A DNA stretch of 24,000 nucleotides from Tractidigestivibacter montrealensis (lineage in GTDB: Bacteria > Actinomycetota > Coriobacteriia > Coriobacteriales > Atopobiaceae). Positions within the stretch are counted from its first letter, which is position 1, and each line of letters begins with the position of its first letter. The translations under genes were made by a program, and so were the position numbers. A model generated the notes under the pieces. The model was not told the origin of the DNA and made no database searches. It worked only from the letters and a program-made list of their open reading frames with translations. The DNA is taken from contig NZ_JANSKA010000001.1 of the NCBI RefSeq assembly GCF_024741235.1, positions 537,133 to 561,132 on the forward strand, written 5' to 3'. Shown piece by piece: positions 1,066 to 23,829 of the stretch.

Positions 1066-2163
1066 CTAGAGGCTAGCGACAAACTTGTCGTAGTCATCCG
1101 AGGTCGCAGGAGGCACGATGTCGCCGGACTTGATGAGCTCCTCCACAGCGAGGGCGTCGTTGTATACGTCCTCTCCCATGAGGGAGTAGTCCTCGGGGAT
1201 GCCCACTGCGCCGTCGGAGAGACCCAGGGTGATGTTGGAGCCGCCCTTAAGGTCGCCGGAGAGAAGGCGCTTGGAGACGTCCACGATGGCAACGTCGACC
1301 TCCTTGAGGGCGGAGGTGAGAACCGTGCCCTCAGCGAGGTAGGACTGGTCCATGTCGGCACCAATGGCGTAGATGCCGGCATCCTTGCAAGCATTGATGA
1401 CGCCAACGCCGGTGCCACCAGCTGCCTGGAACACAACGTCGCAGCCGTCGGAAACCATGCGCTGCGTGATGGAGCTGCCCTTGGCGGCATCGCCAAAGCT
1501 CTCGGCGTACTGGGACTCGCACTGAACGTTGAGGCCCTTCTCCTTGTTGGCATAGGCAACGCCGGCCTTGTAGCCAAACTCGAACTGGCGCAGGACGTCG
1601 CTCTCGACGCCAAGCACGTTGCCAACCATGCCGGTCTTGCTCACGCAGGCGGCAATGTAGCCAACGATGAACGACGACTCCTGGGCACGGAACTGAACGC
1701 CGGTGATATTGGAGGCGTCGGTGGGGTTGGCGTTGTCGATGATGCCAAACTGGACGTTGGGGTTGGCTTTGGCCGCGTTGCCCACAGCGTCTGCCATGGC
1801 AAAGCCAATTGCCCAGATGAGCTCTGCGTCATCGTCAACTGCCTTGTCGAGGTTGGTAGCGTAGTCGGACTCCTGCTTGGACTCGAGGTAGCTGACATCC
1901 CAGCCCTCTTCCTGCTGGAGCCGCTGGAGGCCGGACCACGAAATCTGGTTGAACGACTGGTCGTTAACGCCACCGGTATCGGTAACCATCTCAACCTTGT
2001 GCGTGGTCCCGGACGTGGCGGTACTGCTGGAGGTGTCGCTGCTGGAAGACGAGTCGCTGGACGAACCGCCGCACCCTACGAGTGCTCCGGTGGCGCCCAG
2101 TGCGCATGCGCCAGCAAGGCCCTTCAGGAAGCCACGCCGAGTAAAGCTGCTCTGATCTGGCAT
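1066..2163 (-). CDS. BMP-family (Med/PnrA-like) ABC substrate-binding lipoprotein, probably nucleoside-binding
   Basis: ORF 1066..2211. I trimmed the start to the ATG at 2161-2163, which follows GGAGAAAGGGG. The N-terminus MPDQSSFTRRGFLKGLAGACALGATGALVGCGG has a twin-arginine-like signal and a lipobox Cys, followed by an S/T-rich linker and a periplasmic-binding fold. It is co-oriented with the ATPase downstream and deoD/deoB upstream. Confidence 0.88.
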   Translation of the reverse strand: MPDQSSFTRRGFLKGLAGACALGATGALVGCGGSSSDSSSSSDTSSSTATSGTTHKVEMVTDTGGVNDQSFNQISWSGLQRLQQEEGWDVSYLESKQESDYATNLDKAVDDDAELIWAIGFAMADAVGNAAKANPNVQFGIIDNANPTDASNITGVQFRAQESSFIVGYIAACVSKTGMVGNVLGVESDVLRQFEFGYKAGVAYANKEKGLNVQCESQYAESFGDAAKGSSITQRMVSDGCDVVFQAAGGTGVGVINACKDAGIYAIGADMDQSYLAEGTVLTSALKEVDVAIVDVSKRLLSGDLKGGSNITLGLSDGAVGIPEDYSLMGEDVYNDALAVEELIKSGDIVPPATSDDYDKFVASL

Positions 2164-8855: not shown

Positions 8856-9497
8856 TCAGCCCTCGACAATCTTGATGCCCGCGCTGCAGCCGAGGCGGTC
8901 GGCTCCTGCCTCAACCATGGCAAGCGCCTCCTCCTTGGTGTGGATGCCGCCCGCAGCCTTGACCTTGCAGCGGTCGCCCACGGTCTTGCGCATGAGCGCC
9001 ACGTCGTGCACCGTGGCGCCACCCGTCGAAAAGCCGGTGCTGGTCTTCACGAACGAGGCGCCCGCTGCAACCGCGTCCTCGCAGGCGCGGACAATCTGCT
9101 CGTCATTGAGCAGGCAGCACTCCAGAATGACCTTCACGGGGTGGCCCTGGGCAGCCCTGACGACGGCTGCTATGTCATCGATGACGTACTGGTCGTCGCC
9201 AGCGACGAGGTGACCGCCATTGACCACCATGTCGATCTCTGTGGTCCCGTCCGCCACGGCCTGGGCGGCCTCGGCGGCCTTCGCCTGCGTGGAGCAGGCA
9301 CCCAGAGGGAAGCCGATGCAGGTGGTCACGCCCACGCCGGTGCCCGCAAGGCGCTTGGCAGCCATCGCCGTCCAGCACGAGTTGATTGCAACCGTCGCGA
9401 AGTGGTACTTGGCCGCCTCGTCGCACAGGCGCTCGATGTCTGCCTGCGTCGCGTTCTGCTTGAGATTGGTGTGATCGATGTAGCCATTGAGTTCCAT
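8856..9497 (-). CDS. deoC: Deoxyribose-phosphate aldolase (class I DERA)
   Basis: ORF 8856..9860 trimmed to the ATG at 9495-9497, after GGGAG. MELNGYIDHTNLKQNATQADIERLCDEA...VTTCIGFPLG...EIDMV...VKVILE...FVKTSTGF...VKAAGGI are canonical DERA blocks that include the Schiff-base lysine context. Confidence 0.95.
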   Translation of the reverse strand: MELNGYIDHTNLKQNATQADIERLCDEAAKYHFATVAINSCWTAMAAKRLAGTGVGVTTCIGFPLGACSTQAKAAEAAQAVADGTTEIDMVVNGGHLVAGDDQYVIDDIAAVVRAAQGHPVKVILECCLLNDEQIVRACEDAVAAGASFVKTSTGFSTGGATVHDVALMRKTVGDRCKVKAAGGIHTKEEALAMVEAGADRLGCSAGIKIVEG

Positions 9498-9658
9498 AAC
9501 AAACTCCCGTCTTACGAAGACCCTCCCATAGCTTCCAGCCCACACCTTGGCACAAACAAGATGCTGACGCAATGAGCGCCTCGGCAGCCGTATGGCATCC
9601 CACTCATCACTGACGGCTACACACAGACCCAGGTGAGGCCTAGTTCGCCCAATACTGA

Positions 9659-9808
9659 TTCCTGGCATCAATTGACGGTTGGGATACGGTTTATCGGGCA
9701 CCCACTGAGTACAAACTGGTTCGAGATTTGTTAAACACCTGGTAGACGAATTGCCATCATGACGATTACATATCATTATTGAAACCAAAACTGCTGCCAA
9801 CCGGAAGT
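9659..9808 (-). repeat. Arm B of a diverged AT-rich inverted duplication; sense on the minus strand, in the region upstream of deoC
   Basis: The reverse complement of 9659-9808 aligns without gaps to 9864-10013 at about 70% identity by my hand count (105/150). Near-identical blocks are ACTTCCGGTTRGCAGCAGTT, ATATGT, GCAATTC, TTTAACAAAYYTCGAACCA, CCGYATCCCAACC and TGCCAGG. Confidence 0.75.
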
Positions 9809-9863
9809 CGCCTTTTGCATCAGTACAAGCGCTCGGATTCCAAGGGGCGCCGAGGGTCATCGC

Positions 9864-10013
9864 ACTTCCGGTTAGCAGCAGTTATTGTTCAAGTCTTTAT
9901 ATGTCATTATGCATATCGCAATTCTTTGACCTGCGCTTTAACAAACTTCGAACCATTTGATACTTGGGGGTACCCTCAAAAACCGCATCCCAACCAGAAA
10001 TTCTTGCCAGGCA
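9864..10013 (+). repeat. Arm A of the same inverted duplication; sense on the plus strand, with no downstream plus-strand gene
   Basis: See arm B. The arms are head-to-head and separated by a 55-bp GC-richer spacer (9809-9863). Arm A runs towards the adh terminator at 10047-10087. Confidence 0.75.
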
Positions 10014-10046
10014 GGGCGAGGAACCAGCCCACAGCTCTGCGGTTAG

Positions 10047-10087
10047 CCAAAGGAAAAGAGGGACGGAGCCAAAAGGCTCCGTCCCTC
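10047..10087 (-). terminator. Rho-independent terminator of the alcohol dehydrogenase gene
   Basis: GAGGGACGGAGCC (10058-10070), loop aaaa, GGCTCCGTCCCTC (10075-10087): a perfect 13-bp stem. On the minus strand it is followed by TTTTCCTTTGG. It lies 34 nt downstream of the stop at 10121. Confidence 0.8.
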
Positions 10088-10120
10088 GGGTGGTAACGCC
10101 AATGCTACTTGGAGCAAGAA

Positions 10121-11347
10121 CTAGAAGTTGACCGGCTCGTCGTAGTAGCAGCACTTGAGGATCTTCTCGAAGTCCTCCGCCTTGGTCTCGCGCGGGTTCT
10201 CCGGCGTGCAAGCATCCTGAACTGCGTTGGCAGCAATGGTGGGGAGCTTCTCGAGGAACTCCTTCTCGGAGACCATGACGGGCTCGCCGGTCTCGTCAGC
10301 CTTCACGCCGCCATTGGCGTAGTTGTTGATGCTCTGCGGAATGTGCAGCTCGTCGTTCATGCTGCGGATCTTCTCCACAAGCGAGTCGATAAGCTGGTCG
10401 TCGGTGGTGCCGGGAAGGTGCAGGATCTCCTTGGCAACATAGGCGTAGCGCTCGTGAGCGCGCGGGTCCTTGGAGTTCCACTGGATGGCCTTGCCCAGGT
10501 ACATGGCGTTGGCGGCACCGTGAATGATGTGGCCGTTCTCGAAGGCAGCGCCGGTCTTGTGGGCCATGGAGTGCACGATGCCGAGCAGGCCAGAGGAGAA
10601 CGCCAGGCCGGCCAGGCACTGGGCCTCGTGCATGTGCTTGCGGCCCTCATGATCGCCGGTGTAGGAGACGGGCAGCCACTGCGTAATCTCACGGATGCCG
10701 TGCAGCGCGTCGGCGTCGGTGAACATGGAGGCTGCTGTCGAGACGTACGCCTCGAGACAGTGCGTAAGGGCATCCATACCGGTGTGTGCGCAGAGCTTCT
10801 GAGGCATGGAGTAGGTGAGCTCGGGGTCGACGATGGCAACGTCAGGCGTGATGTTGAAGTCTGCCAGCGGGTACTTAATGCCATGCTCGTAGTCGGTAAT
10901 GACCGAGAAGGCCGTTACCTCGGTAGCGGTGCCGGAAGTGGAGCTAATAGCGCAGAAGTGAGCCTTGTGGCGCAGCTCGGGGAACGAGAACGGCTGAATG
11001 ATGTTATCGAACTTCTCGTCGGGATACTCGTAGAAGACCCACATGGCCTTCGCGGCGTCGATAGGCGAGCCTCCGCCGATGGCAACAATCCAGTCCGGGC
11101 CAAAGTCCTGCATGAACTTGGCGCCCTTCTGCACCGTCTCGATGGACGGGTCGGACTCGACGCCCTCGAACAGCTTGACCTCAAAGCCAGCATCCTCCAG
11201 GTCCTTCTGAACGTCCTGCAGGAAGCCGCCGCGACGCATGCTGTGGCCACCGGAGACGATGACGGCCTTCTTGCCCTTGAGGTTCTTCACCTCGTGGCGA
11301 GCGCCCTCACCAAAGTACAGGTCACGCGGGTTGGTAAAACGTCCCAT
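10121..11347 (-). CDS. Iron-containing (group III) alcohol dehydrogenase
   Basis: A 408-aa ORF with GGAGGA upstream. Fe-ADH blocks are present: IVAIGGGSPIDAAKAMW, ISSTSGTATEVT, and the metal-binding His context AHTGMDALTHCLEAY...GIVHSMAHKTG...HG.ANA. Confidence 0.9.
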   Translation of the reverse strand: MGRFTNPRDLYFGEGARHEVKNLKGKKAVIVSGGHSMRRGGFLQDVQKDLEDAGFEVKLFEGVESDPSIETVQKGAKFMQDFGPDWIVAIGGGSPIDAAKAMWVFYEYPDEKFDNIIQPFSFPELRHKAHFCAISSTSGTATEVTAFSVITDYEHGIKYPLADFNITPDVAIVDPELTYSMPQKLCAHTGMDALTHCLEAYVSTAASMFTDADALHGIREITQWLPVSYTGDHEGRKHMHEAQCLAGLAFSSGLLGIVHSMAHKTGAAFENGHIIHGAANAMYLGKAIQWNSKDPRAHERYAYVAKEILHLPGTTDDQLIDSLVEKIRSMNDELHIPQSINNYANGGVKADETGEPVMVSEKEFLEKLPTIAANAVQDACTPENPRETKAEDFEKILKCCYYDEPVNF

Positions 11348-23679: not shown

Positions 23680-23728
23680 CCGAATGTGTGGCGAGCCGAT
23701 ACACATTCGGGGCACGAACGTGTATCGG
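23680..23728. other. Two overlapping, mutually exclusive inverted repeats in the 232-bp intergenic region upstream of the MazG-fusion gene
   Basis: CCGAATGTGT (23680-23689) pairs perfectly with ACACATTCGG (23701-23710). CCGATACAC (23696-23704) pairs perfectly with GTGTATCGG (23720-23728). The two stems share ACAC at 23701-23704. Confidence 0.35.
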
Positions 23729-23829
23729 CCTGCGCGGGATACAGCTTCGGGCCCAAACGTGTGGCGGCGCGCCGGCCCGCAGCGCTGCCGCCCACCGCCA
23801 CCCGGCGCAAGCCGGCGCCAAGCCCCGCC

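Follow-up and report, generated by a model that had tools for sequence, protein, structure and literature searches.

A facing pair of dispersed intergenic repeats between deoC and adh in Tractidigestivibacter montrealensis is probably the gene-less form of a nuclease gene module

The gap between deoC and adh in T. montrealensis holds two AT-rich arms in head-to-head orientation, and our analyses suggest that this pair is probably the gene-less form of a recurrent module in which two such arms flank a nuclease gene. The pair would stand there as a relic or a partner site, following a logic like that of REPINs and their RAYT transposases. Each arm belongs to a dispersed repeat family, here called sf1, that is apparently undescribed; a survey of the literature on DUF559 proteins with repeats or transposition, on Olsenella repeats and on REPINs in Actinobacteria found no account of the sf1 family or of a nuclease-repeat pairing. 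The DNA analysed, called the window below, is a stretch of 24,000 nt (contig NZ_JANSKA010000001.1, positions 537,133 to 561,132), and positions without a contig label refer to it.

Results

The deoC-adh gap

Since deoC starts at 9497, the bounds of the gap (9498-10120) are correct, and profile and six-frame searches of it came back empty, in agreement with the first-pass annotation, which had seen no credible gene there; no tRNA was found in the gap either. When the reverse complement of 9659-9808 was compared without gaps to 9864-10013, 105 of 150 positions matched, whereas 1000 dinucleotide shuffles, each scored at the best of 21 offsets, gave a mean of 47 matches and a maximum of 60. The ~70% homology initially counted by hand therefore lies far above shuffled controls. 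A repeat search of the window returned the arms as 9661-9808 and 9864-10011 (148 nt, 70% complementary, 55 nt apart). Their GC content is 0.40-0.47, compared to 0.55-0.75 for deoC and adh, which bears out the AT-richness that had been noted relative to the neighbouring genes. The spacer was likewise GC-richer, as described, but the length of 55 bp given for it did not hold, since the family alignment adds ~10 nt to the inner head end of each arm and leaves a spacer of ~41 nt (Table 1). The relatives G001 and G006 (97-99%) share this spacer letter for letter, and that of the orthologous doublet in G007 is unrelated. Arm A has its head, TTCCGGTTGGCAGCAG, at ~9806 and its tail, TGCCAGG, at ~9661; it was placed in an alignment with 45 other copies, and BLAST found paralogs of it in its own genome.

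Table 1. Features of the deoC-adh region in the window (first eight rows) and copies of other palindromic families named in the text
Feature	Coordinates	Strand	Description and evidence
deoC	8856..9497	-	Deoxyribose-phosphate aldolase; translation 8859-9497; orthologs in 72 of 91 family genomes
deoC-proximal leader	9498..9570	-	Conserved genus-wide whatever fills the remaining gap; 13 orthologous intergenic regions aligned
Arm A	9659..9815	-	sf1a unit; nhmmer E = 2e-25 to family profile
Weak sigma-70-like match in arm A	9772..9800	-	TTGGCA, 17 nt, AATGAT; towards deoC; consensus scan
Spacer between heads	9816..9856	.	GC-richer, unconserved
Arm B	9857..10014	+	Second sf1a unit; head ~9866, tail ~10011; nhmmer E = 7e-27; also in 46-copy alignment
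adh intrinsic terminator	10058..10087	-	13-bp stem followed by T-run
adh	10121..11347	-	Fe-type alcohol dehydrogenase gene; ORF list; orthologous anchors
P copies, own genome	C7:255625-255717, C5:167325-167417, C6:62365-62457, C4:267299-267391, C1:20160-20252		Five copies of a precise 93-nt palindrome
Further P copies	L193:356-455, 1644-1737		
p3-type copies, own genome (examples)	C10:101396-101604, C4:31813-32060, C5:180404-180652		
L202-type copies, own genome (examples)	C6:24444-24545, C7:21666-21767		

A dispersed intergenic repeat family

BLAST of arm A against its own genome (2.46 Mb, 62% GC, 12 contigs) recovered copies of ~146 nt on other contigs at 68-74% identity, and iterated nhmmer searches placed the family, with units of ~140-157 nt, at about 28 loci, in two related subfamilies, sf1 and sf2. 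Units of sf1, the type found in the window, have the head TTCCGGTTGGCAGCAG (sf1a) or TGACGGTTGGTGGCAG (sf1b), and sf2 units have the ends TGCACAAAAATCGCGGTTGCCGG; core motifs such as ACCTGCGG and TACTCGG are common to both subfamilies at fixed spacing. Since each unit matches its own reverse complement, the units have terminal inverted repeats, which are imperfect and ~20-35 nt long (e.g., ACGGTTGGTGGCAGTTTT at both sf1b ends). All 28 copies of the genome are intergenic (28/28) and occur in every orientation relative to neighbouring genes. The discrete conserved blocks that had been picked out by comparing the two arms match family-wide blocks in the 46-copy, almost gap-free alignment.

Counting of arm copies in the same genome and its relatives, as the first-pass annotation had proposed, thus gave ~28 in the own genome, and among 30 relatives searched the family was present in 13 of the 13 same-genus genomes (Olsenella / Tractidigestivibacter-like Atopobiaceae) and in 0 of the 17 from other genera. 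When 185,579 species genomes were scanned for exact patterns, multi-copy matches were confined to Olsenella spp., Tractidigestivibacter scatoligenes, 'bacterium OL-1' and Atopobiaceae/Coriobacteriaceae MAGs; single matches in other phyla were without profile support. Plasmid and phage collections contained nothing similar to the window doublet.

Doublets and gene-bearing modules

Head-to-head doublets like that of the window occur at no fewer than five (at least 5) independent loci and have unrelated, GC-rich spacers of 42-135 nt. A single close pair, on C9, is tail-to-tail, so that five of six close pairs are head-to-head (p ~0.005 by hand calculation if orientation were random). The C9 locus (71619-73091) comprises three sf1b copies, two of them tail-to-tail 82 nt apart and the third head-to-head across ~1 kb, a segment in which a nuclease-gene remnant was not detected.

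At C4:176419-177947 of the own genome, a 321-aa gene of lower GC content (176602-177567) is framed by two sf1b copies that face each other head-to-head at a distance of 1.25 kb, and the same arm-gene-arm layout was found at the murB-adjacent locus in G005, G007, G012 and G013 and on a metagenome contig. Around this gene the two arms are 78-100% identical (100% over 159 nt in G013), compared to 67-75% for the arms of gene-less doublets. A further comparison put the latter at 64-76%, against a median of 70% for random pairs. No gene-bearing module with arms of the sf1a type, the subtype of the window, was found, and the window gap contains no surviving remnant of a nuclease gene.

The bracketed protein

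Taken alone, the protein encoded between the sf1b copies had no sequence match in Pfam, NCBIfam or the PDB. Its aligned relatives match PF04480 and PF18741, with 16 of 67 hitting DUF559 (PF04480) and 13 hitting REase_MTES_1575, and the own-genome paralog p3 scored 21.8 bits to PF04480 against a cut-off of 20.6. Residues D225 and E236 do not vary among the sequences, and H243 occurs in at least 90% of them. An alignment-based structure model reached a pLDDT of 91.6, compared to 39 for a single-sequence model. The best PDB match by sequence profile was the Vsr-like (EDxHD) homing endonuclease I-Bth0305I (E = 0.05), and the modelled C-terminal domain weakly matches 3r3p, 1vsr, TnsA and other PD-(D/E)xK folds. 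The likeness to I-Bth0305I (PDB 3R3P) is a weak one, with a TM score of 0.55 on the target, an rmsd of 3.1 A over 68 residues and conserved acidic residues; unlike that enzyme, the protein here has no intron or intein context. Foldseek with the whole protein returned nothing at E < 0.03, and the N-terminal two-thirds are without a solved relative. At ~320 aa, the protein also differs from small DUF559 genes by a large extra N-terminal domain. Residue conservation and the structure model point to a two-domain PD-(D/E)xK protein of DUF559/Vsr-like type, with predicted nuclease activity. The family to which it belongs is large, amounting to 3127 clusters at 50% identity (full-length matches, E <= 1e-30), and the own genome encodes four of its paralogs.

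Paralogs and their flanking repeats

Every one of these four own-genome paralogs (4/4) adjoins a dispersed palindromic element, and three of their eight flanks carry sf1, sf2 or P, families that are present in ~1.5% of intergenic regions (p ~2e-4, calculated by hand). Paralog p2, which is 48% identical, has an sf2 copy 31 nt past its stop codon, and orthologs in other same-genus genomes have one in the same position. Distant paralogs are bracketed by unrelated palindromic families, namely the P, L196, L202, p3 and p4 types. The P, L196, L202 and p3 types are themselves dispersed in the own genome, the L202 type at ~11 loci and the p3 type at ~12 (examples in Table 1); the p4-type motif has 8 matches, on contig C10 only. 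Units resembling sf1 also stand on both sides of metagenomic homologs (52-55% identity) that lie among other genes. For about half of the paralogs examined, a flanking repeat was not detected. Comparison across loci shows predicted nuclease genes bracketed by cognate repeats, the related genomes compared not being independent samples.

Some further observations concern these families. The p2 slot (C5:159607-160593) and the orthologous loci L160, L161 and L182 are hypervariable, with flanks 91-98% identical, a DUF559-like gene of only ~64% identity in DNA, and sf2 absent in some genomes. The p3-type and L202-type families have the ends GCATAAAAAGCCTCTATCGGACGG and AAACCTGCGGGTTAATAGCAGT, and each adjoins a DUF559-like paralog in some genome. 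The window itself contains, at 23680-23765, another palindromic unit, of the GATACACATTCGG ... CGAACGTGTATC type, which has 4 motif matches in the genome and is of the same family as that bracketing a DUF559-like paralog in G011 (L196).

Turnover at the deoC-adh locus and other slots

We aligned the 13 orthologous deoC-adh gaps. Both arms are present in G000, G001, G006 and G007, and G013 has the outer ends of both arms only, i.e., an internal deletion. In six species the gap holds a 93-nt palindromic element, P (AACCTCACACGTG ... CACGTGTGAGGTT), instead, and in two species it holds neither the arms nor P. In another genus (G042, G092, G110), the gap is occupied by a DUF559-like gene of 342 aa together with palindromic units; the encoded protein is 26% identical to the sf1b-bracketed one. 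The G110 copy of this gene (L249:219-1247) seemingly has substitutions at the usual acidic motif, reading LLDYD where VEYD stands here, and its product may be catalytically dead.

The murB slot has a similar range of occupants: in G000 the gene lies between two sf1b copies (sf1b-gene-sf1b), in G004 and G008 a distant paralog lies between two P copies (P-gene-P), and G001 and G006 have a solo P. At a third slot one genome carries a doublet where another carries P, which brings to three the loci where P and sf1 doublets or modules alternate. On C1, a P copy and an sf1b copy flank a gene for Hsp33; since this is an ordinary housekeeping gene, the arrangement was set aside as coincidence.

The first ~70 nt upstream of deoC are conserved in nearly all 13 gaps, including those of sister species without arms. 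Since this leader is kept in species lacking the arms, it does not depend on them, and we infer that the window doublet is not a deoC-specific regulator.

Selection on the conserved blocks

Conserved positions were defined from 13 own-genome paralogs alone and then compared between orthologous copies. At conserved positions 4.0% differed (46/1136) versus 29.9% at variable positions (204/682), so that the conserved blocks evolve ~7 times slower between orthologs, in pairs that are not independent of one another. The window arms differ from their G007 orthologs at 12-13% of conserved and 48-68% of variable positions. In the most divergent ortholog pairs, variable positions were 68-81% different, i.e., saturated, and copy replacement may therefore contribute to the constraint signal; ortholog pairs of intermediate divergence gave the same ratio of ~7 to 1. 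The conserved blocks are thus under purifying selection.

An array of protein-binding sites had been among the readings offered for the two arms. Block-wise purifying selection fits this reading, but as a property of the whole family, with no special tie to deoC. In a broader form, sf1 units could be binding arrays for an unrelated chromosomal protein (nucleoid-associated, topological or regulatory), with the nuclease genes merely co-occupying permissive, recombination-prone slots. Selection on blocks in units lacking RNA structure would be expected of such sites, as would the stability of copies at orthologous loci across species, and unrelated elements do occupy common slots. However, the same repeat family stands on both flanks of a nuclease gene and switches with the protein clade (sf1b, sf2, P, L196, L202, p3, p4), the two arms resemble each other far more closely where a gene lies between them than where none does, and no own-genome paralog is without its dispersed palindromic neighbour. 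We consider it unlikely that binding by an unrelated host protein accounts for the family.

Age and mobility of the copies

Copies within one genome are 63-82% alike, and this limited identity indicates that there was no recent burst of copies. We scanned 53 anchored copies for target-site duplication, a check that had been suggested at the outset, and found no direct repeat of 3-8 nt at a consistent offset; the best case was a 3-mer in 13% of copies, and old copies may have lost their duplications. The presence or absence of sf1 copies differs between species, and relatives have copies that this genome lacks. Since the 'empty' sites examined carry a decayed tail or other remnants, or have diverged flanks, this variation resembles deletion rather than insertion, and neither the target-site scan nor the empty-site alignments gave a sign of recent transposition.

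Of the readings in the first-pass annotation, that of a MITE-like or decayed mobile element came closest, except that the arms are not the termini of one element: each of them is a full, imperfectly palindromic unit of a ~28-copy family. If the units were classical MITEs, i.e., non-autonomous derivatives of an IS whose transposase was lost or lies elsewhere, the doublet would be two independent insertions. Small, non-coding, multi-copy, intergenic units with imperfect terminal inverted repeats are what such an origin would leave, and their presence varies between species as it should. Nevertheless, duplications at a consistent offset are missing, the sf1 terminal motifs of the own genome all lie inside units, and the only pair with IS-like spacing brackets the nuclease gene. 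Furthermore, the copies are old and yet their blocks are conserved in place, and random insertion would not be expected to make close pairs favour the head-to-head orientation. A classical MITE origin is, on this evidence, quite unlikely.

RNA structure, hairpin and coding potential

The arms had also been read as two copies of a structured ncRNA or leader belonging to no recognised family. The latter point was confirmed, as a search of the gap against Rfam found no family at gathering or lenient thresholds, the lenient search giving chance-level matches on the adh terminator only. The former was not supported at any level examined. Single-arm folds were no better than those of shuffles (z from -1.6 to +1.2), RNAalifold on 66 sf1 copies returned no more than a terminal stem of 6 bp, and that for one of the two strands only, and the 46-copy, near gap-free alignment gave a terminal stem (6-7 bp over both alignments) and one local hairpin with covariation not above shuffles. 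The covariation score, computed on this family alignment, was 0.109 versus 0.104 in shuffles and was reached by 125 of 500 of them. A consistent orientation towards genes was likewise lacking.

The whole doublet can fold, as had been proposed, into one long imperfect hairpin of ~150 bp, with a folding energy of -166 kcal/mol for the minus strand (z = -12.7) and -151 kcal/mol for the plus strand, z lying between about -11 and -13. The complementarity of its arms is not maintained, however, since arm A and arm B are 68.6% alike and so no more similar than random inter-locus sf1a pairs (median 70.1%). The long hairpin is probably a by-product.

The open reading frame shared by the two arms runs through both in the window, as first noticed, but is not kept across the family: it stays open for at least 45 codons in only 12 of 66 sf1 copies, the first stop coming after a median of 12 codons. 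This test of its coding potential was therefore negative, and a coding role of the arms was rejected, since the frame is lost in most copies. Neither an RNA-structure signal nor a coding signal is present in the family.

These results bear on the possibility that the units act at the RNA level, each being an sRNA gene or a mobile promoter or leader, with a dsRNA hairpin of the doublet affecting deoC or adh transcripts. The stability of that hairpin would speak for it, together with the weak sigma-70-like match that faces deoC from the head of arm A, although sigma-70-like sites in the region numbered 2 against 0.9 +/- 0.9 in shuffles and are not significant. Apart from the missing Rfam match, consensus structure and covariation, the units have no terminator and no orientation preference relative to genes, complementarity between the arms does not exceed that of random family pairs, and the deoC leader is conserved without them, so that an RNA-level function is left with a slim chance.

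A decaying local inverted duplication without function, to which the modest 70% identity of the arms might point, is almost certainly wrong and is refuted by their membership of a dispersed 28-copy family, each arm having closer relatives elsewhere than its partner and the orthologous doublet of G007 keeping the blocks while its variable positions are saturated.

Discussion

Comparison with known repeats

A close parallel to sf1 is that of REP sequences and REPINs with their RAYT transposases (Bertels and Rainey, 2011; PMC3116915). As in that system, the sf1 repeats are palindromic and lie between genes, their inverted, spaced doublets are able to fold into hairpins, the gene for a putative partner enzyme sits between inverted copies, enzyme clades pair with different repeat families, and copies are long-lived. 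There are also differences: units here are 93-150 nt long and AT-rich versus 20-40 nt, copies number tens versus hundreds, sf1 doublets are not better conserved than singlets, and the enzyme is a predicted two-domain PD-(D/E)xK protein (DUF559/Vsr-like) and not an HUH Y1 transposase. The genome does contain two Y1_Tnp genes (PF01797; RAYT/IS200-like) at C6:286822-287160 and C5:287877-288209, which have their own short perfect palindromes, TGAGACAAAGGGACAGTCCCTTTGTCTCA and CCTGGCAATGGAATCCCATTGCCAGG; these flanking REPs form a classical REP-RAYT layout unrelated to sf1.

ERIC/IRU, Correia/NEMIS and MITEs are imperfect palindromes of ~100-150 bp that are intergenic, multi-copy and non-coding and have conserved ends. 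The sf1 units share with them their size, palindromy, intergenic siting, copy number in the plural, lack of coding capacity and conserved ends. Unlike them, sf1 has neither a target-site duplication nor a transposase partner that we could find, is strongly diverged yet selected block by block, and shows a head-to-head pairing that also brackets a nuclease gene. An IS with sf1 termini was not found in the own genome, and the sole gene-bearing relative encodes a DUF559-like nuclease. The BoxC, PIT and TMECO repeats are GC-rich hairpin or 'intrastrand triplex' repeats (Holder et al., 2015; PMC4666352), unlike sf1 repeats, which are long, AT-rich and lineage-specific. Published accounts of these hairpin repeats do not cover a link to a nuclease. 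A survey of programmed inversions found 'DUF559 domain-containing protein' enriched among inverted-repeat-associated genes with an odds ratio of 14.3 (Milman et al., 2023; PMC9881135). Unlike in programmed inversions, no invertase was seen beside the modules described here, and nothing here shows inversion.

A proposed relationship between nuclease and repeats

We propose the following explanation for the window doublet. Each arm is a complete copy of a lineage-specific intergenic repeat of ~150 bp in which about six blocks are held by selection. Each nuclease paralog of the clade would be bracketed by its own cognate palindromic family; members of these families also stand solo or as doublets elsewhere on the chromosome, and the families replace one another at a few intergenic slots, the deoC-adh gap among them. 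The conserved blocks are putative recognition sites of the nuclease family, contacted probably by way of the N-terminal domain. By analogy with the part that RAYTs play for REPINs, the nuclease may spread, homogenise or maintain the repeats; alternatively, it could spread as homing nucleases do, with the arms serving as homology. The window doublet would then be an old relic, or a landing pad without a resident gene.

Extended beyond this locus, the proposal becomes more tentative. It is possible, and we offer it as a conjecture, that two-domain DUF559 proteins are the partner enzymes of many lineage-specific palindromic families, each paralog recognising its cognate repeat of ~100-150 bp, being carried between two copies of it and spreading or homogenising gene-less solo and doublet copies, with modules competing for a small set of slots such as deoC-adh.

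For annotation, the results caution against labelling AT-rich conserved islands of the sf1 kind as sRNAs or deoC operators. If the link between repeat and enzyme holds, a large uncharacterised protein family would gain a concrete DNA substrate, and a candidate partner enzyme would be available for the unexplained intergenic repeats found in Olsenella-like gut Actinobacteria. The turnover of unrelated elements at a few intergenic slots would also be explained, and the idea of domesticated repeat-plus-enzyme pairs, so far tied to HUH transposases, would extend to PD-(D/E)xK nucleases. Should the wider conjecture be true, the modules would represent the counterpart, built on a nuclease, of REPINs and RAYTs, and a very large orphan protein family would be given a function.
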